Shown piece by piece: positions 117-44,151 of a DNA stretch of 64,000 nucleotides. The position numbers and the translations under genes are program-made. Source of the DNA: Candidatus Latescibacterota bacterium (GTDB taxonomy: Bacteria; Latescibacterota; UBA2968; UBA8231); assembly GCA_007571365.1 (NCBI GenBank), contig RKRN01000058.1, positions 3,842 through 67,841 of the forward strand, read 5' to 3'. Position 1 is the first letter of the stretch, and every line of letters begins with the position of its first letter. The notes beneath the pieces are model-generated. The model had not been told where the DNA came from. It saw only the letters and a list, made by a program, of their open reading frames with translations, and did no database searches.

Positions 117-133
117 AACTGCGTCAAGGTTGT
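117..133. repeat. 17-nt direct repeat AACTGCGTCAAGGTTGT, copy 1
   Basis: The exact 17-mer recurs at 1646..1662. The next ~18 nt align loosely with the RBS region of the 1680 gene. Confidence 0.8.
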
Positions 134-204
134 AGCGAAGAGGAAGAGAGGCTCCTAGACGGATGCTAGCCGGTCTGTAATCCGCCTTTTCCGAGGGCTG
201 CTAC

Positions 205-579
205 CTACTCCCGATAGCCGCGTAGTGCAATTCGATCCAGCAGAATAACTTGGTCTCTGTCGCCAAATAGGAACGCCACCCGGACATCTCGTACATCCCT
301 GCCGGTATGCCTATACTCAATCGTATATTCCCTTTTTGCGTTCGAGATTGTCACCGGCTTGGAGGTCCAAAACCCATCGCTCGAACCGGCGACGTCGGCC
401 AATCGCACCTTGAGAGTCCCCAGCCCACCCACGGACTTGGCTAGGAAGGATATTTTATAAAGCCTTCCCTTTCGCAGGGAGATCAGGTATCTGCCCGGAG
501 GACTCCACGCTCTTTTGGGGGTTTCCTGATAGATTTCGGCACCGGGTGCGATAGCTGCTCTCTCACTTGGTCCTTCCAC
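205..579 (-). pseudogene. Carbohydrate-binding-module-like beta-sandwich tail, probably the out-of-frame 3' part of the GH5 gene upstream
   Basis: 124-aa ORF with a CBM4/9-like pattern (LKVRLADV...VRVAFLFGDRDQVILLDRIAL). It overlaps the 3' end of frame 483..1472 by 97 nt in another frame. Confidence 0.45.
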
Positions 580-1400
580 CGAGGAACTTCGTCTAGCCCC
601 GAGGTTCCATGCGTGAACTCATGAGGTTGATACAGGTGGAAGATGCCGATGATATTGGCGTCTTCCGCAAACCCTGAGCCGTCTTCCAGCCGGTAGGTCA
701 GATATTCCGGTGAGACGAATTCCTCGAGCTCACGCCCCTCGTTAAAGCCAGGTCCGCCGATTCCGAGAGGGCGGTCTGGGTTGGTCTCCCTGATGATGGG
801 GATCGCCGCGTCGAGGTATTCCATAACGGCTTCGCCGTCCCTTATCCCCTCAACCCCGCCCGGTTGCACGATCAGCCCCGCCGGTTCGTTCCAAAGTTCA
901 AAGACAAGGCTGCCGGGGTAGTCCCTGTAGTACTGCGCAATTCCATCCCAAATTGCGACAAACTTCTGTATCCCCTCTTTCGGCTTCGATGCCCATTGGC
1001 CGCTGCCCCACAAGCAGATCACGACAGCAAGATCGCGGTCCAACGCGTCCTGTATTCTCGTTTTGTAGATAGCAGGATCTGCCCCCGCACCGACGAAGAA
1101 GCGGATGCTTTGGAATCCCGCGGCCTTGACGGCATCATACTGGGCAGGATCATACACCATCTTTTCGGGTGGACCACCGGCAAGACAGGCGACATCTACG
1201 TTGATACCTTTGCCGATCCGCTCGAACATGCTCTCCCCTTTGTTCAACTTCGTCGTTGATTCGTAACCGCACAGTTCCCCCGGTAGGGGAAAGCCCAGAA
1301 TGAGTGCTATGGCGATCTTGCGGAAGCGGAGTATGCTGTTTTTGCACCGGCAAAAGCGACGGAGCCGCCTAGCCAGCGAAGGGCGATTTTTTGCTCCCAT
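483..1400 (-). CDS. Glycoside hydrolase family 5 (cellulase-like) catalytic domain, 3' end apparently frameshifted
   Basis: VFELWNEP acid/base motif and HLYQPHEFTH. Candidate starts are ATG 1400 (signal-like MGAKNRPS...IAIALILG) or ATG 1229 (preceded by GGGGAG). The ORF-track start at 1472 runs into the tRNA terminator. Confidence 0.65.
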   Translation of the reverse strand: MGAKNRPSLARRLRRFCRCKNSILRFRKIAIALILGFPLPGELCGYESTTKLNKGESMFERIGKGINVDVACLAGGPPEKMVYDPAQYDAVKAAGFQSIRFFVGAGADPAIYKTRIQDALDRDLAVVICLWGSGQWASKPKEGIQKFVAIWDGIAQYYRDYPGSLVFELWNEPAGLIVQPGGVEGIRDGEAVMEYLDAAIPIIRETNPDRPLGIGGPGFNEGRELEEFVSPEYLTYRLEDGSGFAEDANIIGIFHLYQPHEFTHGTSGLDEVPRWKDQVREQLSHPVPKSIRKPPKERGVLRADT

Positions 1401-1486
1401 TGCAGGTCGATAGTGCTCCTTGGCCAGCGCGCATATTCTCCGGCACCAGTTCCGCTGGGCGCTGAGCAACAAAAACGAGGGGATAC

Positions 1487-1514
1487 GAAAAAAGCCCCTG
1501 AAAAATCAGGGGCT
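1487..1514 (-). terminator. Rho-independent terminator downstream of tRNA-Val
   Basis: The minus strand reads AGCCCCTG-ATTTTT-CAGGGGCT followed by a T-run: an 8-bp GC-rich stem plus U-tract. Confidence 0.7.
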
Positions 1515-1521
1515 CAGAAGA

Positions 1522-1598
1522 TGGTGGGCGATACTAGACTTGAACTAGTGACCTCCTGCATGTCAAGCAGGCGCTCTAGCCAGCTGAGCTAATCGCCC
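1522..1598 (-). tRNA. tRNA-Val (anticodon GAC), CCA encoded
   Basis: Hand-folded 77-nt cloverleaf: acceptor GGGCGAT/ATCGCCC, D stem GCTC/GAGC, anticodon stem CCTGC/GCAGG with loop TTGACAT, T stem ACTAG/CTAGT with loop TTCAAGT, then ACCA. Confidence 0.95.
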
Positions 1599-3177: not shown

Positions 3178-4320
3178 TTAAAAGTACGTCATTAACTTGT
3201 CCCACAGCCCCATGCGGCCGATGCTCTTTTCGGCGTGGATGGGCACCACGGCCAGTAGGCTGTCGCCCAGCGAGACTCGCAGCTTGCCCAGTTCAGTTCC
3301 GGCCGCGACGGGTGCCGTAAATTCTTCGGGCAGATCTAGGTGGCGGACGAGCTGCTTCTTCTGTTCGGGGGTAAGCACGGCAACTACGGTGTCTTGGGCC
3401 AAGACGCGCACCTCTGGCTCTATGCCCCAGTTGAGCACGACCTTGCCCATCAGTTCGCCGGTTTCGACGATGGGTACGCGCGAGAAGTTATCAAAGCCCC
3501 AAGTTAGCAGGCGGCGGGTTTCTCGGTTGCGGACGCTCGTAGAGGGGGCCCCTAAGATCACAGAGATTAGGCGCATGTCGCGGCGCATGGCTGTGGAAAC
3601 GAGGCAGGAGCCGGCGCGCCGCGTATAGCCGGTTTTTAGCCCGTCGAGCCCTTGGAATCGCCCCAGCAGCTTGTTGGTGGCACGGAGTGTGAACTTGCCG
3701 TTGCGAAAGGGCTTGCGGCGGGTAGATGACCATTGCAGGACCTCGGGATGATGGGCCAAAAGCTCGCGGGCGATCTTGGACAGGTCGTGGGCTGTGCTTA
3801 GGTTGCCCTTGCCGGGCGGGGTGTTGTCGAGGCCGTGGACATTGACAACGCGCGTGTCGTGCATGCCGAGGCTTTGAGCGCGCTCGTTCATCCGCCTGAC
3901 AAAGCTGGCGGTTGAGCCGCTGACGTGCTCGGCAATAGCGACGCAAGCATCGTTGGCCGAGGCAATAGCCGCAGCCTCCATCAGCTCCCGCAGGGTAAAG
4001 ACCTCGCCCTTCTTCAAATAGACCTGAGAACCGTTGGTACGCGCCGCACGCCGGGAGATCCGCACTTTGTCGTCTAGCGAGACTTTGCCGGCTTTGACCA
4101 ATTCGAGAACCACGAGTTGGAGCATCAGCTTTTGGGTGCTGGCAGGCGAGCGCTGCCTATCTGGATGATGGGCAAAAAGGACAGTACCGCTTTCGGCTTC
4201 GAGCAAGATGGCGGCGGCATACGGCGGCTTTGGGCCAGGGTCGAAGACAGCAGCTTGCAATGGTACGGAGAATAAACAGATGACGACACACAGCGAACGA
4301 ATATGCATTGTTTTTCTCAT
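3178..4320 (-). CDS. D-alanyl-D-alanine carboxypeptidase (peptidase S11, PBP5/6-like)
   Basis: Signal peptide, SxxK (STQK), SxN (SAN) and KTG (KTGYT) motifs in the canonical order. Confidence 0.85.
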   Translation of the reverse strand: MRKTMHIRSLCVVICLFSVPLQAAVFDPGPKPPYAAAILLEAESGTVLFAHHPDRQRSPASTQKLMLQLVVLELVKAGKVSLDDKVRISRRAARTNGSQVYLKKGEVFTLRELMEAAAIASANDACVAIAEHVSGSTASFVRRMNERAQSLGMHDTRVVNVHGLDNTPPGKGNLSTAHDLSKIARELLAHHPEVLQWSSTRRKPFRNGKFTLRATNKLLGRFQGLDGLKTGYTRRAGSCLVSTAMRRDMRLISVILGAPSTSVRNRETRRLLTWGFDNFSRVPIVETGELMGKVVLNWGIEPEVRVLAQDTVVAVLTPEQKKQLVRHLDLPEEFTAPVAAGTELGKLRVSLGDSLLAVVPIHAEKSIGRMGLWDKLMTYF

Positions 4321-8328: not shown

Positions 8329-10910
8329 GGAGTGGTGGATTGGCGGAGGATGCCCTCGGCCTCGACCAACTCTGGCCGCTCGCCGTACTGCTCTTTGTAT
8401 TGCTGGAGATCGGCCAGTGCCCCGGCAACATCGCCTTTGGCTTGGAGGGCGGCAGCCAATTCGTAGTAGCCCTCCCAGCGTTGCGGCGCGAGGGCAATGG
8501 CTTGGCGATAGAGACCCACGGCGCGATCGTAGGCCGAGTAGGGTTCTTGGATCAGCACGCCGGTCAGCGCGATGATATTGTCGTAGGTGGCGGCCGGCTC
8601 AACATTGACGCGCTCAATGAGGAACTGCACGGCGTCGTGGATGTGCTCAATGGCGATGCCGTGCTGGCCGAGTTCGCTAAAGTAATCGGCCGCCGCATAG
8701 TGGTTTTCCCAACTTATGTAGATGTTGTCCCGCGCCCACTGCATCAGCTGCGGCACTTCGGCTCGGCGTCCCTGCTCCTCGTAGCTGCGGGCCAATTGCA
8801 AGACGCAAGCCCAGTAGTTGCCTAAGAGGCGTTTGGAGTTTTCGTCCTTGTACAAAGACGGATCGGTGAGGCCGCGGAAGCGGTATTTTTCGAGCAGATT
8901 GCGCTCTAAGGCCGCGTCATCGACGCCGTCAGTAGGCTCGGGCCCGACTTTTACGCTCATGCCGACCATCGTTAGGTAGGGGTCGAGGTTGAGCAGGTTG
9001 CTGGTGGGAACGGTGATGGCAAAGTGGATGGGGTTTTTCCACTCGTTCCAAGCGAGGATTTTGATGACCATGACGTCTTGGACGCGGAGGATTGGGTACT
9101 CAGGCGGCGCACTCACTTCCACGCCAATGCCCAGTTTCTTGAACTCCGGTGGCACTTTAGGCTCGGGCCAGTACCGTTTGTAGAAATCAACCGTCTGCGT
9201 ATCGGTCAGCACTGAGTCGATGAAATCGTCGGTGTAGCGGATGTCGATGCGCGGCTCGCGGTCGCGCAGTTGCTTGATGTACCAGTTGGTGTTCAACAGG
9301 CTCAAGTTGACCACCCGCACATCGCGCCGCAGCCCTTCTACTTCTTGCAAGAACCACAGCGGGAAGGTGTCGTTGTCTCCGTTGGTGAACAGGATGGAGC
9401 CTTCGTCGCAACTAATTAGCATGTTGTACGCGTAGTCATAGGCGATGAAGTCGCCGGTGCGGTCTTGCACGTGATAGAGCCGGGCGGCTATCCCGGCCGG
9501 CAGCAGCAACCCAGCCGCGGCCACGGCTAGCACGACCGCCCGATGTTTGCCCCACTGCTGCCGCACCGCCTCAACCAAGCCCAGCCAGCCCAACCCGATC
9601 CACAGCGCGAACGCCAAGTACATGCCGCCGAACACGTAGTGCCGCTCGCGCGGCTGTGGGTCTGGCATGTTCAGGTAGAGCGACAGCCCAAAGCCCATCA
9701 CCAAGAACAGCAGCAACACGCCGCCAAACCGCCGCCAGTCTCGCCGCCCGTGCCACCACAGCCCCCACAGCCCCAGCCCGTACGGCACCAGCGAAATGGA
9801 CACGGGATCCGGCATATTTATAGTGGCCTTGCGGAACACCTCGACCCGCTCCAACAGCGGAAAGGGAAACTGCTGAAAGAAGTACTTCATCTGCTGATCC
9901 CAAAACTGATAGGCGCGGCTCGCCCGCGCCGTCAGCATGGTCGTCAGCATGCTCTCAGTGCCGTATTGCTCGCGGTTGAGGAACTTGAGGAAGGCCAACC
10001 AAGTCTCTGGATCGTTCTCGTCAATGGCTGGATCCAAGCCAGAGCGGATGTACAGTGCACCATAGGTGGAATAGCCCAGCGCGAACAGCACGAGGACGCC
10101 TAGTAGGAGGAAGAACAACCGCTGATTCTGCGGGTCGTTCTGCCGCAGCAAATAGAGCACTACCAGCCCTTCTAGCACGATTCCTACATTCGATCCTAGC
10201 CCCGGCCCTAGTGCGACTATCGTCAGGAGTGCGGCGGCTCCCCATAGTAGCAGCAGCAAGATGAGCCGCCGGAGCTCGCGATCGGCAAACCACGCCAGCA
10301 GCATAAGCGATGGAATCGTCAACAGGCACAACAGATGCACGCCGCCGCCGAGGCCGAATAAATACGCCAGTGCCAACAGCCAGCGGTCGTTGGCCGCGCC
10401 CGCGCCGCTGCCTTCCCAGTAGAAAATCAGCCACAGCCCCAGACAGGTAAACAAGATGGAGTAGCCATACACCTCGGCTTCGGAGGCATTGTACCACTGA
10501 GTGTAGGAAAACGCCAAGGTCAGCGCGGCGACGGCCGCGCCGGCGAGGACCCCGATGTCGCGGCCGTCGCCCAGCGGTTGCAGGGGCTGACCGCCCAAGG
10601 CCCGCCGCCCGAGCGCGATGGTCGATAGATAGACGCACCAAATTGCCAGCGCGGATGTCAGCGCGGACATAAAATTGACGCGGATGGCCACGTCGCCGAT
10701 GGGAAACAAAGTAAAGACGCGCCCCAACAGCACGTACAAAGGGGCACCCGGCGGATGGGGCACACCGAGGATGTAGGACGTGGCGATAAACTCACCACAG
10801 TCCCAAAACGACACAGTTGGCGCGAGGGTCTTCGCGTACATCCCCAGCGTCAGCACAAAAATTCCCACCCCGAAAACCCGGTGGATTACAGCGGAATTAG
10901 GCATTGGCAA
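8325..10910 (-). CDS. DUF2723-type polytopic glycosyltransferase-like membrane protein with C-terminal TPR repeats
   Basis: N-terminal FWDCGEFIATSYILGVPHPPGAPLY signature, many TM helices, and a TPR-like C-terminus. Confidence 0.8.
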   Translation of the reverse strand: MPMPNSAVIHRVFGVGIFVLTLGMYAKTLAPTVSFWDCGEFIATSYILGVPHPPGAPLYVLLGRVFTLFPIGDVAIRVNFMSALTSALAIWCVYLSTIALGRRALGGQPLQPLGDGRDIGVLAGAAVAALTLAFSYTQWYNASEAEVYGYSILFTCLGLWLIFYWEGSGAGAANDRWLLALAYLFGLGGGVHLLCLLTIPSLMLLAWFADRELRRLILLLLLWGAAALLTIVALGPGLGSNVGIVLEGLVVLYLLRQNDPQNQRLFFLLLGVLVLFALGYSTYGALYIRSGLDPAIDENDPETWLAFLKFLNREQYGTESMLTTMLTARASRAYQFWDQQMKYFFQQFPFPLLERVEVFRKATINMPDPVSISLVPYGLGLWGLWWHGRRDWRRFGGVLLLFLVMGFGLSLYLNMPDPQPRERHYVFGGMYLAFALWIGLGWLGLVEAVRQQWGKHRAVVLAVAAAGLLLPAGIAARLYHVQDRTGDFIAYDYAYNMLISCDEGSILFTNGDNDTFPLWFLQEVEGLRRDVRVVNLSLLNTNWYIKQLRDREPRIDIRYTDDFIDSVLTDTQTVDFYKRYWPEPKVPPEFKKLGIGVEVSAPPEYPILRVQDVMVIKILAWNEWKNPIHFAITVPTSNLLNLDPYLTMVGMSVKVGPEPTDGVDDAALERNLLEKYRFRGLTDPSLYKDENSKRLLGNYWACVLQLARSYEEQGRRAEVPQLMQWARDNIYISWENHYAAADYFSELGQHGIAIEHIHDAVQFLIERVNVEPAATYDNIIALTGVLIQEPYSAYDRAVGLYRQAIALAPQRWEGYYELAAALQAKGDVAGALADLQQYKEQYGERPELVEAEGILRQSTTP

Positions 10911-10920: not shown

Positions 10921-11093
10921 TGCTAACGTTACGCACTACTGCTTCCTGTTCCGTCACGCCCGCGCAAGCTCCCGTCCAGCGGGGCCGGACGGGAGCTAAC
11001 GGCGTTGGATTCCCGCCCCGTGTCAGGGCACGGGGTGACGTTCTTACGCGGGAAGGACAAGAGGTATGGGATGCCTGTGCGTAACATCAGTTA
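10921..11093. mobile_element. MITE-like element, copy A (left end degenerate)
   Basis: Ends are gcTAACGTTACGCAc and GTGCGTAACATCAGT followed by TA. An internal ~55-nt hairpin module matches copy B in inverted orientation. Confidence 0.55.
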
Positions 11094-15404: not shown

Positions 15405-21070
<5,666 letters not shown>

Positions 21071-30991: not shown

Positions 30992-31034
30992 TACCGAAAC
31001 GGATTTCAATGATCTAACGGAGAGGAATTTAGCG

Positions 31035-33072: not shown

Positions 33073-33117
33073 ATTGGCCGGCAAGAATGGCGTCGGCAAG
33101 ACGACCGTTTTAGAGGC
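33073..33117 (+). repeat. 45-nt fragment of the ATPase gene P-loop region
   Basis: attggccggcaagaatggcgtcggcaagacgaccgttttagaggc matches 34030..34074 with one mismatch. Confidence 0.9.
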
Positions 33118-33309: not shown

Positions 33310-33522
33310 ATGGCAGCTAATTTTTGGACCATTCCTGGGATTATCAAAAACGGTGTGGTTATGCCCCAGAGTGATACCCCTTTGCCTAACGGCGTCCACG
33401 TGGAAATTCTCATTCGGTCGGTGGATATGCCACCGGAGCTAAAGTCCGAATTAGACCAGTGGGGCCAAGCAAGCGACGAAGCTTGGGCATTGATTGAGCA
33501 ATGGGAAGCGGAAGAGAGGTGA
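33310..33522 (+). CDS. Putative antitoxin (small DUF104/AbrB-like N-terminal beta segment)
   Basis: GIIKNGVVMPQSDTPLPNGVHVEILI motif. Overlaps the MazF-like gene by 22 nt. GGAGGGA RBS. Confidence 0.55.
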   Translation: MAANFWTIPGIIKNGVVMPQSDTPLPNGVHVEILIRSVDMPPELKSELDQWGQASDEAWALIEQWEAEER

Positions 33523-33863
33523 GTTGCGGCGATATTCACTGGGTTGAGCTACCCGTTGATAACGGCCGTGAGCAACGCGGACGTCGTCCCGCAGTGGTTA
33601 TGCAGGATGACCATTACGCAGGTAATTTGCCTGTTGTCCTTGTGGTCCCCCTGACGACAGCGAGAACAGCAAGCCGTTTTGTCGGTACAATATTCATTCA
33701 TCCCACGATGGAAAATGGACTGAGAGCGGAATCAGTGGCCTTGGTGTTTCAGCTACGGGCCATTGACCGTCGTCGTCTTCAGGAACGCATTGGAACTGTG
33801 AGTACACAGGTGTTGAATGCTATGTTTGAAGAGCTTGGAAAACTCACGGGTCGCAAGATGTAG
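33501..33863 (+). CDS. PemK/MazF family toxin
   Basis: GDIHWVELPVDNGREQRGRRPAVVMQDD...VVLVVPLTT pattern. Confidence 0.8.
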   Translation: MGSGREVSCGDIHWVELPVDNGREQRGRRPAVVMQDDHYAGNLPVVLVVPLTTARTASRFVGTIFIHPTMENGLRAESVALVFQLRAIDRRRLQERIGTVSTQVLNAMFEELGKLTGRKM

Positions 33864-33923: not shown

Positions 33924-35099
33924 ATGGCCCCAAAACGACTCGACGACTGCCTGCACCTTCCGAACCTGTCGATAGCAGGTTTTCGGGCGATCAAAGAGCT
34001 TTCCATTGCACACTTGGGCCGCGTGACGCTATTGGCCGGCAAGAATGGCGTCGGCAAGACGACTGTTTTAGAGGCGGTCCGAGTCTATGCAGCGCACGGT
34101 CACTACGAAGTTCTGGCCGATCTGTTGGAAAGCCGCCAAGAGATGGCCGCCGCTATGGTCGAAAGTAGCTCACGAGAATTCGTAGCCGATTTTGAGGCCC
34201 TATTCCACGGACGAGATGTGTCGAGATGCGCCCGCATCGCAATCGGTTCAGAAGATACGGGCCAACTCAGGATTGAAGAGGCTTCGCTGAGCGCTGAGCA
34301 GACTTCTCATATTGACGGAATTCTATCTCGGTATATTGAAAAGGGCTTCACACAGGCATTCAAAGTCGCATGGTTAGGCTCCGAGCAGATACTGCCATGG
34401 GTGTTACCTATTCAAGGATCGGCTGTGGCTAGCCCAGTAGAACGTTATAGCGATTGCGCGTACCTATACCTACGGAATTTATTGCAAAAAACCGAATTGC
34501 CGCCTCCAATAGGATGTCAGCTTTTGGGGCCGAGCGTGTTGAGTAACGAAGAAATTGCACGGTTTTGGAATACTATCGCGCTGACGGACGATGAGGACCG
34601 GGCAGTACAGGCACTGAAGCTGATTTTCGGCAACGACTTGGAGCGGGTGGGGGTGATCCGCAACGACGTATCATCTGCGGGTCACAAAAAATATATGGAG
34701 CGAGTCGTCGCAAAACTCCACGGACAAGCCCGTCCCGTCCCTCTGCAAAGCCTCGGCAACGGCGCACTGCACTTGGCCGGCGTTACCTTGGCACTGATCG
34801 ACAGCCGCGACGGATTCTTGCTCATTGACGAGGCGGAAAACGGCGTTCACCATGCCATACAGCCTGACTTCTGGCGCATGGTCTTTAAGACGGCGTCCGC
34901 CAACAACGTGCAGGTCATTGCAACGACGCACAGCTTTGATTGCGTCCGCGGATTCGCCCAAGCCGCAGTTGAGTGCGAGGAAGCCGAAGGGGTGCTTGTG
35001 CGTCTTGAGCGAAAAGATGAGGAAATGTGGGCCGTTGAGTATTCGGAGCGCAATCTCAAAGCCGTTGTCAAACAGCATATTGGTATGGAGGTGAGGTAG
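33924..35099 (+). CDS. ABC-type (AAA_21-like) ATPase
   Basis: Walker A GKNGVGKTT, Walker B/D-loop LLIDEAENGVH, and H-loop ATTHS. Confidence 0.85.
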   Translation: MAPKRLDDCLHLPNLSIAGFRAIKELSIAHLGRVTLLAGKNGVGKTTVLEAVRVYAAHGHYEVLADLLESRQEMAAAMVESSSREFVADFEALFHGRDVSRCARIAIGSEDTGQLRIEEASLSAEQTSHIDGILSRYIEKGFTQAFKVAWLGSEQILPWVLPIQGSAVASPVERYSDCAYLYLRNLLQKTELPPPIGCQLLGPSVLSNEEIARFWNTIALTDDEDRAVQALKLIFGNDLERVGVIRNDVSSAGHKKYMERVVAKLHGQARPVPLQSLGNGALHLAGVTLALIDSRDGFLLIDEAENGVHHAIQPDFWRMVFKTASANNVQVIATTHSFDCVRGFAQAAVECEEAEGVLVRLERKDEEMWAVEYSERNLKAVVKQHIGMEVR

Positions 35100-35103
35100 G
35101 TGA

Positions 35104-35730
35104 ATGGCTAATAATGACCGCGTCCTCTTAGTTGAGGGACAAAACGATAAGCATGTCATTCGGCATTTTCGCAATCGCCATCAAGCTATGCCAGAATTCT
35201 GTATTCAAGATAAAGGAGGGATAGAAGAACTTCTTGAAGACATCGGCTTGGAGATTTTAGCTCCCAACCACAAAGCCGTTGGCATCTTAGTGGATGCAAA
35301 CGACGATTTGAACGCCCGCTGGGATGCTGTGGCCACTAGGCTTCGCGAGGAGAATATCGAGATGCCCAGCAGTCCTGATCCAACCGGCACCATTATAGAC
35401 AGCAATCCCCGCGTCGGCATCTGGTTGATGCCCGACAATGAGTCTCCCGGCGAACTCGAAAATTTCGTCGCAGAGATGATCCCCCAAAACGATCCGATCT
35501 GGCCACGGTCCACGAACTACATCGATAGCATTCCAGAGAAAGACCGAAAATTTACCGCAAAAAAGAGATTGCGGGCCCAACTCCACGCTTGGCTAGCGAC
35601 GCGAGAAGACCCTAGGCAAATGGGTCTCGCCATTAGCACCCAAGACCTGTGTGTAGATGGAACACTCAGCACAGCATTCGCTAAGTGGCTGCGGCAATTG
35701 TTCGAGCAAGCTCCCGTTGCGTCAAAATAG
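35104..35730 (+). CDS. Small TOPRIM-like protein (DUF3226/DUF4276/RloB-type by pattern)
   Basis: N-terminal VLLVEGQNDKHVI (conserved Glu) and acidic cluster ILVDANDD. Starts 4 nt after the ATPase stop with a GGAGGTGAGG RBS. The last ~6 codons lie in the hicB-derived repeat. Confidence 0.6.
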   Translation: MANNDRVLLVEGQNDKHVIRHFRNRHQAMPEFCIQDKGGIEELLEDIGLEILAPNHKAVGILVDANDDLNARWDAVATRLREENIEMPSSPDPTGTIIDSNPRVGIWLMPDNESPGELENFVAEMIPQNDPIWPRSTNYIDSIPEKDRKFTAKKRLRAQLHAWLATREDPRQMGLAISTQDLCVDGTLSTAFAKWLRQLFEQAPVASK

Positions 35731-35775
35731 TGGAATAGTCTGATGAGGACCAGTGCTAGGTCGGCCGTTGTCCGG
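35712..35775 (+). repeat. Decayed copy of the hicB 5' segment
   Basis: tcccgttgcgtcaaaatagtggaatagtctgatgaggaccagtgctaggtcggccgttgtccgg aligns to 31720..31783. Contains stops in the hicB frame. Confidence 0.85.
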
Positions 35776-35781
35776 GTCGCT

Positions 35782-37365
35782 TCAGTGAGCAATAGCCAGT
35801 TCGACGCCGGTCAATTTTACTTGCTCTCGGCGATCTTTTTGCCCTGCCACTAGCCGCACGGCGACCTCGTTTGTGCCCGTCCGCAAAAAAGAACCATCCA
35901 CTGCAAATTCTACGCTGACCCCGGCCATTTGTTGCGCGACCGGACGAGTGGGATAGCTGGCCCAAAACAGCGGTGCTGTCTGCTGGCGCGACCAGCCAGC
36001 TCTGGAAACTTGGGCTTGGTGCCAAGGGAGGGCGTGGCCGTTGAGTTCGACTTCGAGGCGGTCCGCCGCGGGCAAATGCTCCAAACGCAAGGCCAAGCCG
36101 CCGGTGGCGTCGGCCACATCATCGGCGACGCGGATGCGGAGCGTCGGCCCCAAGCTGGGGCTGTCGGTGGGCAAGGGCACTGGAAGCGGTGTCGAGGGAT
36201 GGGCCAAGCGGAAGGCGGCACTGTGGCCCGCCGTGGGACTGAAGGCCATGGTGCTGCTGATTTCGTAGCACTTGTCGAGTTTCTTCAGGGTGTTGAGGTC
36301 GGAGAATTCAGCGGCGGTTTGTCGATTCCACTCGGGCGACATGGTATAGAAGTTGTATAGGTAGATGCCGTCGGCCCCGTCAGTGAGCCAGCGCAGGGCC
36401 AAGGCGCGGAGGAAGCGCCGGTCGCTGTGGCGGGTGGCTTCAATGCAGCCATAGACGAGGCAAGGGGTAGAAGCCGCCGCACGGACGAACTCATCGACCG
36501 GGGTCTCAAAGGAGATAAAGCCGCCACCCACGACGACGATATCGACGAGGCCGGTCTCGATCCATTCGTCGACGTCGAGGCCAAGGCGCCGCGAGTCGGC
36601 CAAGGTCGGGGGGACGCGGACGGCCAGTTGCAAGGGCTTGCCCCGTTGGGCACTGACCTCGCGGAGCCGCGCCTTGATCTTTTGCACCAGATCGGTCATC
36701 AGGTAGCTGTTGGCCGTGGCTTCGGCCATGCGGAAGAAGGCCGAATGGCGCATGAAGTCCAGCTCAATGCCATTGACGTCAAAACGCTCGAAAACCTCGC
36801 AGGCGATGCGCCGCAGGTGTTCGCGCACCTCGGCGTGGGCGTAGTCGAGGCCGGTGCGGATGCCCCACTCAACCGACTTTTCGGGGAATGCTTCGCCGGG
36901 GCGGCCCATGAGCAGGTGGGGCTGCTCGCGGCGGAAGCGACCGTAGCCGGGATGGGATGGGTCGATCTGGTAGTGGCTGTTCATGCGGATGCGGGGAAAG
37001 AAGGGGATCGCCGCCGCACGGCACAGGTGTGCAAGTGCGGTCAACGGCCCGCCGCACTCGGCGATTAGGTTCTGGAGGTTGGCGGCGATCCGCGCTTCGA
37101 CGCCGGGTGTGGCCGAGTGGACGAAGGAAGGGGCTGTCGCGCCGAGGCCGCGGCGGTCGTCGCCGAATTTCTCGCCAATTTCCGTCTCGAACTGATAGAC
37201 CTCATGGTCGCCCGTGCTCCACCAGAATGCGCCGCCGGTGCCAGCATAGCCATCGACGATTTTCTCTTTGAGGTCGGCGACCGAGACGTTGTCCTCAGCC
37301 GTGAAAATCCAGCCGTCGTCGGTGAAGATGATGGGGGGCGGAGAGGCGGGATGTTTTGGGGACAT
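35782..37365 (-). CDS. TIM-barrel glycoside-hydrolase-like protein (GHL10-type pattern), function unknown
   Basis: 527-aa ORF with core GC content and an NGIELDFMRH motif. Function is not established. Confidence 0.7.
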   Translation of the reverse strand: MSPKHPASPPPIIFTDDGWIFTAEDNVSVADLKEKIVDGYAGTGGAFWWSTGDHEVYQFETEIGEKFGDDRRGLGATAPSFVHSATPGVEARIAANLQNLIAECGGPLTALAHLCRAAAIPFFPRIRMNSHYQIDPSHPGYGRFRREQPHLLMGRPGEAFPEKSVEWGIRTGLDYAHAEVREHLRRIACEVFERFDVNGIELDFMRHSAFFRMAEATANSYLMTDLVQKIKARLREVSAQRGKPLQLAVRVPPTLADSRRLGLDVDEWIETGLVDIVVVGGGFISFETPVDEFVRAAASTPCLVYGCIEATRHSDRRFLRALALRWLTDGADGIYLYNFYTMSPEWNRQTAAEFSDLNTLKKLDKCYEISSTMAFSPTAGHSAAFRLAHPSTPLPVPLPTDSPSLGPTLRIRVADDVADATGGLALRLEHLPAADRLEVELNGHALPWHQAQVSRAGWSRQQTAPLFWASYPTRPVAQQMAGVSVEFAVDGSFLRTGTNEVAVRLVAGQKDRREQVKLTGVELAIAH

Positions 37366-37571
37366 AATCGTTAAGAGCCTATACGAAAATTGATTTCCTG
37401 TTAATAAAAAATTCTTGGCAACCTACGCTTTCTTCACCTAACCTATTGACCCTCAATCAAGTCCGAATTGTCGATCGTTTGACATGACTTTCGTATAGGA
37501 TCTAAGTGCAACTTTTATACCATTTTGCTAATCGTCTATCCTAATAAGTACCCTCCGAGAGCAGGGGGTAA

Positions 37572-38027
37572 TTAGGGCACTAAAAAGTCAAATTCCTCCT
37601 TTTCCTCCTTTGAGAATGCAAATCGCCATAGTTGATCGAGCCATCCATGATCTGCAAATAGATTGTAGAGTATAAGTATGAACATACAAAGATAGTAAAT
37701 AATACCCAGAGGTGCAGCCATGGCGAACCAAAGAAATGCTCGCCATGGATGTGGTCTTTGGTATACAAACCCCGCTAATATAAAAAGAATAATACCTATA
37801 GCAAACTCCCAATGGCGAAGTCCATATATAAATAATAAAATCAGATGACTACCAATTACTAAGTGTCCTACGAGCAACAATATCTTACTTTGATAAAAGA
37901 ACCCTATGGCGATACATAGGGTTCCTATCGGGAATAGGATAATAGTAGCCTCAATAATCATGACAGTGCGGAACTCTCGAGTGGCTAACGGGCCACACAG
38001 AACACTTATGAAAGGGCCATCCGTCAC
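37572..38027 (-). CDS. Small polytopic membrane protein in an AT-rich insert
   Basis: 4-5 hydrophobic helices. Markedly AT-rich compared with neighbours. Start is GTG 38027 or ATG 37961. Confidence 0.6.
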   Translation of the reverse strand: MTDGPFISVLCGPLATREFRTVMIIEATIILFPIGTLCIAIGFFYQSKILLLVGHLVIGSHLILLFIYGLRHWEFAIGIILFILAGFVYQRPHPWRAFLWFAMAAPLGIIYYLCMFILILYNLFADHGWLDQLWRFAFSKEEKEEFDFLVP

Positions 38028-38059
38028 ACCATGGTCCTGAATCGTAATCCATACATGAC

Positions 38060-38158
38060 TTTCTCTTTGAGATCAGCCACCGAGACGTTGTCCGCAGCCG
38101 TGAAAATCCAGCCGTCGTCGGTGAAGATGATGGGGGGCGGAGAGGGCTTGGGGGCCAT
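38060..38158 (-). repeat. Remnant copy of the first ~100 nt of gene 35782..37365
   Basis: Aligns to 37261..37365 with a ~51-nt identical core (cagccgtgaaaatcc...ggcggagagg). Retains the CCATGTCAGC junction with the upstream gene stop, the same 10-mer as at 39230..39239. Confidence 0.9.
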
Positions 38159-38159
38159 G

Positions 38160-39233
38160 TCAGCGGCCTAGATAGGCTTTGATGATGTCGATGATTAGGG
38201 CGATGTCGCAGCGGGCCTCTTCCAAGGAAGTACGCGGCAGTACGCCCTCAGTGATGCAGGCGTGGAAGTGCTTCAACTCGCGGACGAAGGGGCCTTCCCA
38301 CGCGATGGCCGGGCGGTGGGTGATGGCCTCGCCGGCTTCGTCGAGGGTCTGAATCTCCAAAGTGGAGAGGATCCCCCGCGAAAAGCCGGTTGGGTAGGAG
38401 AGCAACACGCGGCGGTCGTCGCCGCAGACTTCGAGAGTTTCCTTGAAGTCGCGCACGTCCTTTAGTTCGACCCAAGTGGCCGCACAGCGTGCGCCGTTGG
38501 CATAGGCGAGCATGGTGCTGATGCCCCAGCCTTCGTACCAAATTTCGGTGCTGGCGACTCTTTCGGGTACGCCCATGATGGTGCGCAGGCCGTAGAGATC
38601 GTGGATCATGCTGCCGGCGAGGTGGCCAAAGGCAGCCTGCACGTCGGCCGGGACTGCGCCGAGGGCCTCGCGCACGGCCGCCGCCCGCGCCGCCCGCGTC
38701 TGCTCCACAGCCGCAGTGGGTATGTCGTCGGCGCGGTGCAGGCGGAAGTGCGCCAGATGATGCGAGTTGTTGGTGTGCAGGTGGTGAATTTGGACAAAGC
38801 GGATCGCGGCCATGTCAGCGGCCGCCCGGGCCGCGGCCTCAAAGGCCGGGTCGTACACTTTCATGTAACCCGCCAAGCCAACGGTGCCAGCCGCCAGCCG
38901 AGCGGCGACGATCCGGTCGGCCTCTTGCAGCGAGAAGCAGATCGGCTTTTCGATGAAGACGTGTTTGCCAGCCGCAAAGGCGGCGACGGCAATCTCGGTT
39001 TTGGGATCGGTGTGGCACAACAGCACGGCGTCGAGCTCGGCGGCGAGTAGGGTGCGCCAGTCGCTGGTGTGGTGCGGTACGTGAAACTCTTGCGCCACGG
39101 TCTGCGCCAAGTTAGGCGAGAGGTCGCAAACCATCTCGACGGAAAACAGGTCCTTGAGCGCGGTGAGGTTGGGTAGGTGCTGGACTTGGGCGACGGCTCC
39201 GCAGCCGACGACGCCGATGTGGACAGGAGCCAT
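38160..39233 (-). CDS. Gfo/Idh/MocA family oxidoreductase
   Basis: HIGVVGCGAVAQ Rossmann motif. ATG 39233 lies 1 nt after the cupin gene stop. Confidence 0.85.
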   Translation of the reverse strand: MAPVHIGVVGCGAVAQVQHLPNLTALKDLFSVEMVCDLSPNLAQTVAQEFHVPHHTSDWRTLLAAELDAVLLCHTDPKTEIAVAAFAAGKHVFIEKPICFSLQEADRIVAARLAAGTVGLAGYMKVYDPAFEAAARAAADMAAIRFVQIHHLHTNNSHHLAHFRLHRADDIPTAAVEQTRAARAAAVREALGAVPADVQAAFGHLAGSMIHDLYGLRTIMGVPERVASTEIWYEGWGISTMLAYANGARCAATWVELKDVRDFKETLEVCGDDRRVLLSYPTGFSRGILSTLEIQTLDEAGEAITHRPAIAWEGPFVRELKHFHACITEGVLPRTSLEEARCDIALIIDIIKAYLGR

Positions 39234-41167: not shown

Positions 41168-41193
41168 CGGTCAAACTTCGGCAAACCGGCAAC
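41168..41193. repeat. Copy of the last ~26 nt of the SNF2 gene
   Basis: cggtcaaacttcggcaaaccggcaacc compared with cggtcagacttcggcaaatcccgtcggcaacc at 41234..41265. Confidence 0.7.
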
Positions 41194-41197
41194 CGCT

Positions 41198-41216
41198 GGC
41201 GGGCGAGACGCCCGCC
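41198..41216. repeat. REP-like hairpin GGCGGGCG-AGA-CGCCCGCC, copy 1
   Basis: 8-bp GC stem. The core GCGGGCGAGACGCCCGC and a following CCCA-GG tail recur at 52510..52535. Confidence 0.7.
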
Positions 41217-41236
41217 CTCCCAGGAGGATCGCACGG

Positions 41237-42991
41237 TCAGACTTCGGCAAATCCCGTCGGCAACCCCTCTCCCTTGACTAGGGCCTCCTTCAACGCCCGC
41301 GCATGTTGGCAAATCCCCCGATAAGAAAATCCCTTACAACTGCAACTTATGTCGTTTCCTTCTACCTCCAACTCGTAGAAAGCCCCCGGCCTCGACGAGC
41401 TGTCTGCCCGATACACAGCCCGCTTTGGCCCGGCCAACACCCGCGCCAACACTTGCACGGCCGCGGCCGACGGCAAGCGCGACTGGGCCTGCGCGGAGAC
41501 GGCGGGCTGTGCGGCGACAAAAGCCGCCTCGGCCTCGCGCAACAATTCCACTACTTGCTGCTCGTCCATCGCACCCGTGGGCGGCGCGGGCAGCACCGCC
41601 AGCACCCGCCGCAACTCGTCCATCACGTCGCGCTGGAAATGTTCGGGCAAAGCGCGGCCCTCGACGAGTTGGTCGATCAGCACCGACTTGGTTTCGAGGA
41701 CCGTCTTGACGAATTCGTCGATTGTGTTGCTGCCGACCATGTACGTGACGTTGACAGCTTGCTGTTGCCCGATGCGGTAGGCCCGGTCTTCGGCCTGCCA
41801 GTGGTTGACCGGCACCCAGTCGAGATCGTTGAAAACCACCTGCCGCGCGGCCGTCAGGTTGAGCCCGACCCCGCCAGCGGTAATCTGCGCCGCCAGCACC
41901 TGCACTGTTTTGTCCTCCTGAAAGCGATCGGCCCGTTGTTGCCGCTCGCTCGCGGGCACTTCGCCAGTGATGGCTACGGCCTTTGAGCCGAAGTGCTTGC
42001 GCAGCGTGTTGACCGGGGCGAGAAAACACGAGAAAACCAAGACCTTTTCGCCCTGTTCTAAGGCGTTTTCGACAAAGGGAATCGTGCTGCGGACCTTGGC
42101 CATGGCCAAGCGATTGCGCGCGGTGGTTAGCTGGCCCATGATCCAGCCCTGCCGCGAGCGGCGCGCGGCTTCGGTCTCGCCGGCCAGCTTGGCTTGGCCC
42201 CGGCGCGAGATGGTCTGCAACAGCTCCATTACCGCCTCGCTCAGCTCGCGCGCCACTCGGCTGGCGACCTCCACATCGTGCCAACTGCGAATTTTGGGCG
42301 GCAGGTCGAGGACTTCGGCCTTGGTGCGACGCAGCATGATGCCGTGCAACTGCACGGTCAGCTCTTCGATATTGGAGGCTCCGTCGGCGACCCAACCGTA
42401 CTCGCCCTTGTAGCCGGCGCAATAGTGCTTGGCAAACGAGACGAACGAACGCCCCAAGGCGTGGCGCACTAATTGCAACAGGGGGAAAAGATCGCGCGGC
42501 CGGCTCGTCAACGGCGTACCGGTCAACAGGTGGACCACCGCCTCGTCGCCGACGGCTTTGACCAAGGCCAGCGACAGGCGGTGCCGCTGGCTGCGGTAGT
42601 TTTTGAGATAGTGAGCCTCGTCGAAGACTAGGCCGCTCCAAGTGTGCTCGGCCAGCGGGTGTTTGGCGAGGATATCGTAGTTGATGATGACCCAGCCGGC
42701 ATAGCCGGGCACTGGCGCGGGTGCCGGGCCGACGATGGCGATTTCTGCCGTCGGCAGCACCAGTTCAATCTCACGTGCCCAGTTGGTTTTGACCGCGGCC
42801 GGGCAGACGACTAAGTACGGCCCCTCGGGCCGCGCTTGGCGCATGGCCAGCACGGACTGCCGCGTCTTGCCCAGCCCCATGTCGTCGGCGAGAATCGCCC
42901 GCTGACGACCCAACAAAAAGGCAATGCCCTCGACTTGGTGGGCGTATAGCCCGGCCGCTAGGGCCTCGGCCTGTTGTTGTGCTGTGCTCAT
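41237..42991 (-). CDS. SNF2-family helicase with C-terminal SWIM zinc finger
   Basis: DDMGLGKT, DEAHYLKN and QAEDRAYRIGQ. SWIM motif CSCKGFSYRGICQHARAL. Confidence 0.9.
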   Translation of the reverse strand: MSTAQQQAEALAAGLYAHQVEGIAFLLGRQRAILADDMGLGKTRQSVLAMRQARPEGPYLVVCPAAVKTNWAREIELVLPTAEIAIVGPAPAPVPGYAGWVIINYDILAKHPLAEHTWSGLVFDEAHYLKNYRSQRHRLSLALVKAVGDEAVVHLLTGTPLTSRPRDLFPLLQLVRHALGRSFVSFAKHYCAGYKGEYGWVADGASNIEELTVQLHGIMLRRTKAEVLDLPPKIRSWHDVEVASRVARELSEAVMELLQTISRRGQAKLAGETEAARRSRQGWIMGQLTTARNRLAMAKVRSTIPFVENALEQGEKVLVFSCFLAPVNTLRKHFGSKAVAITGEVPASERQQRADRFQEDKTVQVLAAQITAGGVGLNLTAARQVVFNDLDWVPVNHWQAEDRAYRIGQQQAVNVTYMVGSNTIDEFVKTVLETKSVLIDQLVEGRALPEHFQRDVMDELRRVLAVLPAPPTGAMDEQQVVELLREAEAAFVAAQPAVSAQAQSRLPSAAAVQVLARVLAGPKRAVYRADSSSRPGAFYELEVEGNDISCSCKGFSYRGICQHARALKEALVKGEGLPTGFAEV

Positions 42992-43202
42992 AGACGCTCG
43001 GTTGCGTGGGGATATCTCTCTGAAGGCTACTCAGTCCAGCGCCTTGTCTACAAACAAGCATTCTATATGCCTGCTCCAGGCTACCTAGGCACCAAGTGGG
43101 TGTAAGATTCTGTCCTACGAAGGCAGAGGTAAGGCAGAAAGCGTCATGTTCGTCACAGTCGTCAGGATAATGGATTCTTGAGGCGACGCCCCTCGTCGTC
43201 AA

Positions 43203-43346
43203 TCACCACGCCGCGGCTCGGCCGACGATCGCTCCAGTGCCAGTCCGGTTAAACCGACCCCCATGAAGACGCGCTCCCTCTCCCGAGAGCGGCGACCAAG
43301 ACCAGTGCGGGTTGTATGCACGGTACACGAACTCTTGGAACCGCAT
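43203..43346 (-). pseudogene. 3'-truncated RES-domain toxin remnant (47 codons)
   Basis: MRFQEFVYRAYNPHWSWSPLSGEGARLHGGRFNRTGTGA matches only the N-terminal part of RES toxins. TGATG overlap with the antitoxin stop. Confidence 0.6.
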
Positions 43347-43753
43347 CAGGCATAACCACCAGCGACGATCCGGTCGAGATGAGCAGGCACTTGGTCTGCA
43401 CGGCCTTGCCGCAGAAGTTGGTTGGGCGTTAGACCGCCGAAGCCCGGCAAAGGCCCCGCACGGAACCAAGCATAAGCGGCCAGTTCGGAACCGGTTTGAA
43501 CTTCAACTCGGTGGAGAATCTCCAACATCTGCCGTAGTCGCGTCTGCGTCTTCTGCGCTCGGATCTGCGGGGCACACGAAAAGGCATCGCGGCCAAGCCC
43601 TAGCGTACCGGCAATTTCGGCCCGAGTCGTATGCAATGCATTCGCGACGAGCGTCGGCGAGAACACCCGATCTTCGACGAATTCTTCAAACGGCATGACG
43701 ATACCTCGTGTTTTGTTAGAAACCCCTGTCGGGCTGCTTTGCGAGGCAGTCAT
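43346..43753 (-). CDS. Xre/MbcA/ParS-type antitoxin (HTH plus DUF2384-like toxin-binding domain)
   Basis: AAYAWFRAGPLPGFGGLTPNQLLRQGRADQVPAHLDRI C-terminal pattern. Confidence 0.75.
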   Translation of the reverse strand: MTASQSSPTGVSNKTRGIVMPFEEFVEDRVFSPTLVANALHTTRAEIAGTLGLGRDAFSCAPQIRAQKTQTRLRQMLEILHRVEVQTGSELAAYAWFRAGPLPGFGGLTPNQLLRQGRADQVPAHLDRIVAGGYA

Positions 43754-43810
43754 AGCCCCGAAACGGGTCGAATAGTGAGCATATGGATACCCTTCTACGG
43801 CGTCAATAAA

Positions 43811-44028
43811 TAACTGACGTTACGCAGTGGCGTTAGCGGCCGTCGGCCCCTTGGGCGTTGTTCCGTGGTTGGGCTTCGACACGGTCAGCCGCTGGCGGTA
43901 TGCCCGGCGCCGGTCGAACCGTAGGGACAGACCTAGGTGTCTGTCCAAAAAAGAATCCGCCGACGGCGGTGTGCCTTGCGCTTGTCGAAGGGCATGACTC
44001 CATGGAAGCGGACTGCGTAACGTCAGTA
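43811..44028. mobile_element. MITE-like element, copy C (218 bp)
   Basis: TIRs TAACTGACGTTACGCAG and CTGCGTAACGTCAGTA. Internal hairpin GGACAGAC..GTCTGTCC. The subterminal GGCATGAC motif is shared with copy B. Confidence 0.65.
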
Positions 44029-44063
44029 AATGGAAACGATGGGTTTACTCCCAATCAGGTGTT

Positions 44064-44151
44064 GCCTTCGACTTGGTGGACGTACAGTTCGACCGTAGGG
44101 CCTCGGCTTGTTGTTGGGCGGTCGTCATAGATGCGCGATTGCTTCGGGGTG
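44064..44151 (-). repeat. Remnant copy of the SNF2 gene 5' end plus its upstream ~25 nt
   Basis: Aligns to 42926..43013. Would encode MTTAQQQAEAL..LYVHQVEG with a frameshift, compared with resident MSTAQQQAEALAAGLYAHQVEG. Confidence 0.85.

Follow-up and report, generated by a model that had tools for sequence, protein, structure and literature searches.

In a 64-kb stretch of DNA from an uncultured Candidatus Latescibacterota bacterium (contig RKRN01000058.1; 59.9% GC; hereafter the window), a type IIG restriction-modification (R-M) gene and several other conserved genes are accompanied by diverged, partial copies of their own ends, with toxin-antitoxin (TA) or candidate defence genes lying between the copies. 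We conclude that these repeats are probably the scars of serial, one-sided acquisition of cassettes beside conserved genes, anchored by homology in the manner of homology-facilitated illegitimate recombination (HFIR). The scars are real, and they are a known kind of recombination footprint, with no new mobile element or enzyme. New here are the anchors, namely a promoter and several unrelated genes besides the type IIG R-M gene; the non-cognate defence and TA cargo; the involvement of both gene ends; and the spread across phyla.

We detected repeats by self-versus-self BLASTN of the whole window and by local alignments, and called genes using Pfam and PADLOC over ~50 window open reading frames (ORFs) and Pfam on 10 cargo ORFs of other loci. 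Using the type IIG protein as query we retrieved 80 related loci (L001-L080) from species-representative genomes; three further relatives (L082-L084) came from homologues of p527, a conserved gene of the window, and the comparison material consisted of 24-kb loci around the matches plus the 64-kb window. Nearly all of the 80 loci are metagenome-assembled genomes (MAGs), from Latescibacterota, Dehalococcoidia, Nitrospirales, Entotheonella, Gammaproteobacteria and others, a mix of phyla from which we infer a typical marine sponge microbiome set. Six Latescibacterota loci (L001, L006, L011, L012, L039 and L078) are syntenic with the window, with 86-90% nucleotide identity in conserved genes. The nearest p527 homologues are just 88% identical, a single metagenome scan with p527 returned one contig of 2.9 kb, and a database look-up found no record of the window's type IIG or MazF proteins.

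Behind the type IIG gene the plus strand carries, in order, a DUF2188/PDC-S16 gene, HicA/HicB, two membrane-like ORFs, MazE/MazF and an AAA_21 ATPase-DUF3226 pair; the minus strand carries p527, a 151-aa AT-rich ORF, a GFO/IDH oxidoreductase, a cupin, a C5 DNA methylase and an SNF2/SWIM helicase. Beyond SNF2 lie a truncated RES toxin with an Xre antitoxin, a 215-nt miniature inverted-repeat transposable element (MITE), and a DUF6785/6784 gene. The main stack is composed as follows (GC3, GC content at third codon positions).

26888-30949, plus strand: type IIG R-M gene, 1353 aa (Pfam Eco57I/N6_Mtase/MmeI; PADLOC REase_MTase_IIG)
30963-31268, plus strand: layer 1 cargo, a DUF2188/PDC-S16 candidate defence gene directly after the type IIG stop codon
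31337-31411, plus strand: relic 1, the 3'-terminal 76 nt of a type IIG allele, stop codon included and 1 nt missing
31370-31947, plus strand: layer 2 cargo, a HicA-like toxin (Pfam HicA_toxin) and a HicB-like antitoxin (31708-31947)
31975-32124, plus strand: relic 2, a copy of positions -172 to -14 of the type IIG gene that has lost 11 nt, gained 2 nt and acquired an in-frame stop
32113-32914, plus strand: layer 3 cargo, two small low-GC ORFs of 158 aa (membrane-like) and 111 aa (weak Pfam 8xMP/TauE matches; GC3 0.49)
32982-33056, plus strand: relic 3, a stretch from within the type IIG 3' block that corresponds to aa 66-90 of the final 109, from self-BLAST
33073-33117, plus strand: 45-nt fragment of the ATPase P-loop (= 34031-34075), from self-BLAST
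33310-33863, plus strand: cargo before the ATPase, a MazE-like/MazF (PemK) TA pair (Pfam PemK_toxin)
33924-35730, plus strand: deepest layer, an AAA_21/AAA_15 ATPase and DUF3226 (PADLOC PDC-M38A/B, AbiLi-like)
35709-35782, plus strand: hicB' relic beside p527, with ~170 nt of its 3' part lost and an in-frame TAG

The type IIG gene is the anchor of this stack: the intact gene is followed by three truncated 3' ends with different cargo behind each, the arrangement by which displacement arrays are recognised. Relic 1 aligns at 62/76 positions (30873-30948 versus 31337-31411, E 1e-11), relic 2 at 130/161 (30777-30935 versus 31975-32124, E 1e-32) and relic 3 at 46/59 (30821-30879 versus 32988-33046, E 4.5e-6). 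When the relics were compared with 80 type IIG alleles, relic 2 was nearest to the window's own gene, relic 1 matched the allele of L007 at 67/76 positions with the window's own gene ranking 10/80, and relic 3 was nearest to the allele of an Entotheonella MAG (L042, 62/76) with the own gene ranking 23/80; these ranks rest on only 59-160 nt each, and the assignment is weak.

A conservation profile places the conserved 3' block of the type IIG gene in its last ~450 nt. Nucleotides ~3330-3600 of the gene are hypervariable (pairwise identity 0.42-0.50), with conserved sequence on both sides, and presumably encode the target-recognition domain. Along the gene the nearest allele switches every few hundred nucleotides, and this fine-scale mosaic, with its hypervariable block, looks like target-recognition-domain swapping. 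The gene is common to MAGs of at least eight phyla at 60-85% amino acid identity. Just upstream, and divergent, lies a gene for a small HTH_37 protein (26445-26774, minus strand) that may be a controller of the R-M gene; this region is kept in L004, L006 and L039.

The cargo behind the type IIG gene has a mixed history. The DUF2188 gene is also found 3' of type IIG in L039 and L040. The annotated start of the HicA ORF is inflated by read-through of relic 1, and the window's complete hicB (31708-31947) has 86-89% nucleotide identity to the hicB of L039, L078 and L082, the last of which is called HicB_lk_antitox. Neither layer 3 ORF has a homologue in 86 loci, no related locus has the MazEF pair, and the compared genomes yielded no intact gene-plus-cargo counterpart of the HicAB or membrane-ORF layers. 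The ATPase-DUF3226 pair at the bottom is the resident neighbour of type IIG in relatives: it lies directly 3' of the gene in L021, L011 and L012, and native adjacency is also indicated in L082. The P-loop fragment, which matches the intact ATPase at 44/45 positions (pair d; 34031-34075 versus 33073-33117, E 2e-10), is a remnant of this old adjacency, brought up against relic 3 when ~245 nt were deleted. With MazEF between fragment and intact gene, the architecture is that of events f and h below, viewed from the 5' end of the gene. No cognate relation is evident between the window's cargo (DUF2188/PDC-S16, HicAB, the membrane ORFs, MazEF and PDC-M38) and the type IIG C-terminus.

The fragment beside p527 has another origin. 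It aligns with the complete hicB upstream (pair e; 31717-31786 versus 35709-35778, 61/70, E 3e-14), and had been read as one side of an insertion bracket. In L039 the order is type IIG-DUF2188-...-ATPase-DUF3226-hicB-p527, and in L078 and L082 hicB abuts p527; the fragment at 35709-35782 thus occupies the orthologous hicB position and is collinear with the resident hicB of these three loci, and pair e is therefore not an insertion bracket. By this alignment, hicB' is the resident hicB, decayed by loss of its 3' part, and the complete hicAB upstream is a second, imported copy that has diverged by 13%. We also tried to derive pair d, pair e and relic 3 from a single tandem duplication, which does not reproduce the order of fragments seen.

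Further events lie at p527, at both ends of the SNF2 gene, at a promoter and at the left end of the window.

35782-37365, minus strand: p527, a conserved gene of 527 aa that anchors event f, with the proximal copy in its first ~115 nt (37250-37365)
37366-38048, minus strand: f cassette, AT-rich, with a 151-aa membrane-like ORF (37572-38027, GC3 0.37), absent in relatives
38049-38159, minus strand: f relic, the opening ~111 nt of p527 with its start codon; it runs collinearly into the native spacer and the end of the GFO gene
41168-41262, minus strand: event g, the SNF2 3' end (41234-41262) and a ~26-nt relic (41168-41193) around a GC-rich hairpin (41197-41216)
41237-43011, minus strand: SNF2/SWIM helicase gene and ~20-nt 5' leader; 42914-43011 is the proximal copy of event h
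43012-44051, minus strand: h insert, a truncated RES toxin (43203-43469), an Xre/MbcA antitoxin (43346-43753) and a MITE-like element (43813-44027)
44052-44148, minus strand: h relic, a copy of the SNF2 5' end and leader that lacks 1 nt; as in L082, native spacer and DUF6785 gene (44304-46286) follow collinearly
21112-22064, minus strand: event b, promoter copies (21112-21133 and 22045-22064) of an 1889-aa gene around a Uma2/PDC-S03 gene (21195-22082)
117-1672: event a, 28-nt repeats (117-144 and 1646-1672) around a GH5 gene (483-1472, minus strand) and tRNA-Val (1522-1598, minus strand)

At p527, the copies of event f match at 89/97 positions (37250-37346 versus 38049-38145, E 1e-26), and six relatives (L001, L011, L039, L078, L082 and L084) have the empty site, with one p527 5' end, the native spacer and GFO. 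The native p527-GFO spacer is collinear with the window's relic and not with the intact copy. A multi-genome alignment revealed that the two copies are reciprocal. In its interior the intact copy resembles the orthologues, but at the start codon, where it has a 6-nt indel, it diverges from them; the relic is the reverse, its start-proximal ~25 nt matching the orthologues, and a 51-nt identical core separates the two zones. This fits a crossover or conversion tract within the repeat, as would arise in a Campbell-type single crossover of a circle. The cassette has two homologues elsewhere, one on an unrelated short contig (L086) and one at the same site in a TARA scaffold (L085). In the latter the cassette is 95% identical at the nucleotide level and the flanking GFO gene 88%, and the junction, with only ~16 nt of p527 relic, differs from the window's; therefore the f cassette has moved between lineages using the p527-GFO site. 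Some p527 homologues contain GHL10/PF02638. Beside the 151-aa cassette we also noted a motif, AAGTG[C/T]AACTTTTATACCA[T/A]TTTGC (37499-37530), which recurs at the end of L085 (reverse complement, 1-30) and may be an element end; in L085, ~570 nt of GC-rich sequence separates it from the cassette.

At SNF2, the copies of pair h match at 76/98 positions (42914-43011 versus 44052-44148, E 3e-14). L001 and L039 have empty sites without any cargo, in which SNF2 is followed directly by a homologue of window positions 46340 onward, and in L082 SNF2 is followed by a ~54-nt gap and then by the DUF6785 spacer and gene. The window's relic and spacer are collinear with L082, and therefore the 1.1-kb RES'-Xre-MITE segment is an insert. 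The MITE-like element is 215 nt long with perfect 16-nt terminal inverted repeats (ACTGACGTTACGCAGT). We considered it as a mediator of the events and found no evidence for this, as across the other 84 loci its terminal repeat has a single occurrence (L032, 8575-8590). The window has no transposase; copies of a DDE_Tnp_1 insertion sequence (IS) are present in the homologous island of L082 and L083. At the other end of SNF2, the g sequence (CGGTCA[A/G]ACTTCGGCAAA..CGGCAAC, at 41168 and 41234) is an interrupted copy of <30 nt. It is single-copy in L001 and L039, and comparison with these loci indicates that pair g is real and ~26 nt long.

Event b marks a hot spot. The window's copies match at 16/17 positions, which is too short for a BLAST report and <30 nt, and correspond to the conserved promoter of the 1889-aa gene, which L001, L039 and L006 have once; it is double, within 29-120-nt repeats around inserts, in the window, L011, L012 and L078; from these comparisons we take pair b to be real. 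(The gene at 22179, previously called uvrA, actually encodes an AP_endonuc_2 TIM-barrel protein.) The Uma2 insertion is common to the window and L011; L012 and L078 have other inserts at the same spot, with duplications of 120 nt and 48 nt, and the inserts of the window, L011 and L078 begin at the same base. In L006 the 5' end of the next gene is duplicated (438 nt, 95%) around a 3-kb insert. Taken with the empty sites of f and h, these cases make the process a recurrent one in this lineage. The 1889-aa ORF itself (15401-21070, minus strand) contains long internal repeats of ~1-2.8 kb at 61-65% nucleotide identity (e.g. 15432-18190 versus 18258-21061) and is kept at 87-91% in L001, L011, L012 and L078. 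Pair a matches at 25/28 positions with an exact 17-mer, and its window-wide E-value is 1.7. Exact direct 17-mers <=2 kb apart number 15 in the window against 0 in 30 Markov shuffles; pair a is locally unusual, and uncorroborated.

An earlier, sequence-only reading of the window had reported these eight pairs, a to h, as one architecture occurring eight times. The repeats exist: five of the eight (c, the type IIG copies, with d, e, f and h) are significant in window-wide self-BLASTN, with E-values from 4.5e-6 to 1e-32 and coordinates a few nucleotides off those first given, and of the three others b and g, too short alone, are confirmed by related genomes, while for a there is the local test. 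The eightfold recurrence was overstated: e represents a resident gene in decay, an additional deletion has to be assumed for d, and a lacks corroboration. An identical core within diverged flanks, described for all pairs, has statistical support for f (51-nt run, P=0.0016) and relic 2 (33-nt run, P=0.018) and lacks it for relic 1, e and h. The damage ascribed to the distal copies stands: local alignments show frameshifts, stops or truncations in them, including the 11-nt deletion and stop of relic 2, the 1-nt deletions of relic 1 and h, and the TAG of e.

No recombinase accompanies the inserts. Pfam identified no integrase, transposase or reverse transcriptase in the ~50 window ORFs or in the 10 cargo ORFs of other loci, as the earlier reading had claimed for the window, and Pfam scans found no mobility genes in or beside the inserts. 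An Rfam search returned tRNA-Val only, and no other structured RNAs, introns or retrons. Mismatches between copies are distributed over all four bases; a diversity-generating retroelement is ruled out by this lack of adenine bias and the absence of a reverse transcriptase, and an integron or attC array by the absence of IntI and of a recurrent inverted repeat at cassette borders. By Pfam and PADLOC the cargo genes are TA or candidate defence genes, and cassette genes have a GC3 of 0.37-0.59 versus 0.63-0.82 in conserved and core genes.

The same signature occurs in other genomes. A scan of every locus with its own type IIG 3' end as query yielded 21 relics in 15/80 sources, counting all fragments; terminal relics are present in 11 loci besides the window, from Latescibacterota, Rhodothermales, Terriglobia, Versatilivorator, Dehalococcoidia, Entotheonella, Chloroflexota and Binatia. 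Their inner boundary is variable, spanning -40 to -440 nt, so that every inner junction lies <=440 nt from the gene end; their outer boundary is <=7 nt from the stop codon in 11/21 relics. Every relic maps within the final, conserved ~450 nt of type IIG, just 3' of the hypervariable block. The cargo between copies in these loci includes ThiF-like, TIR, DUF3644, DUF2971, pentapeptide, PIN/antitoxin and zinc-finger antitoxin genes; none of the 10 cargo ORFs encodes a recombinase, and no shared inverted repeat or attC-like motif was found at cassette borders.

Relic and cargo also travel together. The intact gene end and downstream sequence of L002 correspond to relic 1 and downstream sequence of L008 (86% and 84%), and the relic and cargo of L018 correspond to relic 2 and cargo of L008 (835 nt, 90%). 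L082 has a 162-nt type IIG 3'-end relic (13345-13506) beside ATPase-DUF3226, and the type IIG gene itself is absent. In the place of type IIG, L082 has an IS and a ResIII/RE_endonuc gene. Three displaced fragment-and-partner combinations of the window match intact pairs elsewhere: type IIG-ATPase-DUF3226 (L021, L011 and L012), type IIG-DUF2188 (L039 and L040) and SNF2-DUF6785 (L082). In three Dehalococcoidia MAGs the type IIG gene is itself bracketed by direct repeats of 121-249 nt at 87-97.5% identity (L045, 9366-9486/15942-16062; L048, 9261-9509/15795-16043; L051, 9512-9734/14062-14282). In L048 and L051 the repeat on the upstream side overlaps the preceding gene at its 3' end, and both are textbook cases of R-M insertion with long target duplication.

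We suggest that such stacks would arise as follows. DNA of a related genome would enter carrying the same anchor gene, or its end only, joined to other cargo. A first joint would form by homologous recombination within the anchor gene, and a second, illegitimate or short-homology joint inside the recipient's gene end; the intact gene would afterwards possess the incoming end and the new cargo, and the recipient's old gene end would be displaced outward as a truncated relic with its old neighbour still attached. Repetition would yield a stack with the newest layer closest to the gene, which in the window would read type IIG / DUF2188 / relic 1-HicAB / relic 2-membrane ORFs / relic 3-ATPase' / MazEF / ATPase-DUF3226-hicB'. 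Gene 5' ends and promoters would be subject to the same process (f, h, d and b), and an element-encoded recombinase would be unnecessary. Survivorship probably shapes the relics observed: events that break the anchor would be lost, long and similar direct repeats would delete themselves by recombination, and short or diverged relics would persist. We observe the repeats, empty sites, shared relic-and-cargo blocks, boundary statistics and absence of recombinase genes, and we infer the sequence of events, the type of each joint, the entry route of the DNA and the enzymology. Linear HFIR integration and Campbell-type single crossover of a circle are both compatible with the data, which cannot distinguish them.

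We favour serial displacement because it best accommodates the variable inner junctions, outer junctions at the functional gene boundary, unrelated cargo, shared blocks, apparently allelic relics, mosaic anchor and lack of recombinase. Of the two mechanisms proposed from the sequence alone, the comparative data thus favour one-sided homology, that is HFIR of allelic gene-end-plus-cassette blocks. They disfavour a gene-end-targeting element with a spare copy of its target: the crossover point is not fixed, the cargo is unrelated, and neither a recombinase nor a shared terminal motif was found in the loci compared. The proposed search of related MAGs for empty sites turned them up for b, f, g and h.

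Several points weigh against this account. With every SNF2 allele seen the h relic shares 76-78% identity, more divergence than expected of a recently displaced resident allele, and strain-level relatives carrying single-layer alleles were not found among the relatives compared. The f junction, the sole illegitimate joint that could be examined, has a possible 4-nt microhomology, CCAT, and the case is not conclusive. Both f copies carry common window-specific substitutions, and pair d matches at 44/45, which fits in-situ duplication or later gene conversion as well as a very close donor. The sharp boundary at the stop codon is not explained by HFIR, and requires a mobile type IIG unit ending at the stop codon. 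Finally, the static sequence does not tell this account apart from a long target duplication in situ, with decay and then allele replacement afterwards.

This last alternative, in-situ insertion with long target duplication, is unlikely in our judgment. A staggered break with long overhangs, possibly provoked by restriction, or replicative repair would capture DNA and duplicate 20-450 nt; the copies would be identical at first and diverge later, with selection retaining events that reach a gene boundary. Direct repeats of >30 nt that surround recombinase-free inserts and are single at empty sites, as in f (97-111 nt) and h (98 nt), are the hallmark given by Furuta et al. (2010; PMC2853133), and type IIG bracketed by 121-249-nt copies of neighbouring gene ends in L045, L048 and L051 agrees with it, as do the lineage-specific substitutions common to both f copies and the near-identity of d; it may apply to d, f and h, whose copies have lineage-specific bases in common. 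It gives no reason for an outer boundary at the stop codon in 11/21 relics, however, and fits poorly with relics 1 and 3 being nearer to foreign alleles than to the resident gene, with the non-uniform differences in f and relic 2, or with an f relic that is orthologue-like over its start-proximal ~25 nt where the intact copy has the 6-nt indel; the class is also without an established molecular mechanism (PMC2853133).

Non-autonomous cassettes moved by a site-specific recombinase encoded elsewhere in the genome, either integron-like or with a spare gene end of the e14/icd type, strike us as improbable. Such cassettes would be expected to be small, mostly co-oriented and TA-rich like those of chromosomal integrons, as the window's are; the identical cores with diverged arms in f and relic 2 and the single junction point shared by the promoter hot-spot inserts of the window, L011 and L078 would suit them, and the MITE and the IS copies of relatives show that trans-acting transposases exist in the lineage. 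Yet there is no integrase in the 64 kb or in the inserts examined, the inner boundaries range from -40 to -440 nt without a common core, no attC-like or shared inverted repeat marks the borders, cargo is unrelated from event to event, and the repeats derive from whichever gene adjoins (type IIG, ATPase, p527, SNF2 or the promoter). Slightly less credible still is local segmental duplication with differential deletion and gene conversion, without horizontal input. The decayed hicB' with its second hicB, and the d fragment, are possible leftovers of a duplicated block, and the identical cores suggest gene conversion between copies; but cargo is foreign in composition and absent from relatives, relics are closer to alleles of other genomes, the same relic-and-cargo blocks occur in different genomes at different stack depths, no simple tandem order yields the observed fragments, and DUF2188, ATPase-DUF3226 and DUF6785 are found as intact anchor neighbours in other genomes. 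Chance similarity or chimeric junctions from metagenome assembly we regard as very improbable. Chance might account for a, with its E-value above 1, or for b and g, each under 30 nt, but not for E-values down to 1e-32. The same junctions and blocks turn up in independent assemblies, which makes an artefact of assembly unlikely: the Uma2 junction is also present in L011, and relic-and-cargo blocks are 84-90% identical across assemblies from different projects; moreover, the repeats are short and 76-92% identical, unlike sequences that collapse or mis-join assemblies.

Serial displacement has precedents. Sequential displacement by HFIR was proposed for type VI secretion system (T6SS) effector-immunity arrays of Vibrio cholerae and for Rhs (Kirchberger et al., 2017; PMC5361080). 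Rhs C-terminal displacement, orphan modules of contact-dependent inhibition (CDI) and T6SS arrays likewise have a conserved anchor, a string of displaced 3' fragments each with its former partner, the newest layer at the intact gene, blocks matching an intact gene and partner elsewhere, and no integrase, with HFIR proposed. They differ from the window in that its anchors are a type IIG R-M gene, an ATPase, a helicase, p527 and a promoter; its cargo consists of unrelated TA or candidate defence genes and not cognate immunity genes; the variable part starts after the stop codon and not within the ORF; and 5' ends and promoters are hit besides 3' ends, with events across several bacterial phyla. 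HFIR itself (de Vries and Wackernagel, 2002; Prudhomme et al., 2002; Meier and Wackernagel, 2003; all as cited in PMC5361080) has also been seen in E. coli conjugation (PMC3240628). It combines a one-sided homologous anchor with an illegitimate second joint at a few bp of microhomology, ~1 kb or less from the anchor, takes in linear DNA by natural transformation or conjugation, depends on RecA, uses no dedicated recombinase, and would leave an intact gene, new cargo and a truncated old end; HFIR was defined experimentally, whereas here it is deduced from end products.

Insertion of R-M units with long target duplication was described by Nobusato et al. (2000), as reported by Furuta, Abe and Kobayashi (2010; PMC2853133), whose criteria are direct repeats of >30 bp present once at the empty site and an insert of <20 kb with R and M homologues. 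The window's inserts resemble these in lacking mobility genes, in their lower GC and in >30-bp repeats single at the empty site, and the repeats in that class often overlap the 3' end of a neighbouring gene, as type IIG brackets do in L045, L048 and L051. In contrast, the window's inserts are not R+M units, as the fused R-M type IIG gene of those three MAGs is; repeat identity is 76-98% versus mostly >=93% in the tables of PMC2853133; and the window's copies look like different alleles and not fresh duplicates, with relics stacked.

Islands in tRNA genes, and e14 and phage 21 in icd, are elements that carry a spare copy of the end of their target gene. There, too, the end supplied by incoming DNA keeps the gene intact, and the far junction retains the old, diverged end as a relic. 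Such elements bring their own integrase and recombine at a fixed core site, whereas the inserts described here (0.04-4 kb) have no integrase and variable junctions.

Homology-anchored capture implies that a defence and TA island can grow without integrase or transposase while leaving datable layers, so that the relic stack is a readable record of acquisition order. It also suggests that a horizontally shared R-M gene can serve as common homology for the exchange of neighbouring defence genes, and gene-end relics offer a cheap computational marker for recombination hot spots and for separating cargo from core in MAGs. More tentatively, and with some doubt, we raise the possibility that type IIG acts as a portable, integrase-free landing pad, whose conserved 3' block would let distantly related co-resident bacteria pass defence and TA cargo among themselves, each arrival stacking older cargo behind relics. 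If true, this would be functionally an integron-like cassette array driven by host recombination alone.

The window contains other repeats. A 35-nt direct similarity (37149-37183 versus 38408-38442; 77%, with an exact 17-mer) links the interiors of p527 and the GFO gene. A direct repeat of 132 nt (59043-59174 versus 59456-59581; 76%) marks the 5' ends of two small neighbouring ORFs (58785-59225 and 59222-59638, minus strand) that adjoin a MotA/ExbB gene; these are probably tandem ExbD/TolR-type paralogues and not an insertion scar. Two intergenic segments share an inverted similarity (10953-11054 versus 25496-25599; 108 nt, 71%, E 2e-7), and there are self-complementary stretches at 10527-10571, 20667-20741, 25433-25599 and 55665-55705; these segments may be repetitive extragenic palindromic (REP)-like or terminator elements. 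Just outside the island, a SelA-like ORF (46308-47552, a weak match) and a clear SelB elongation factor (52508-54541) suggest a selenocysteine-utilisation gene set.

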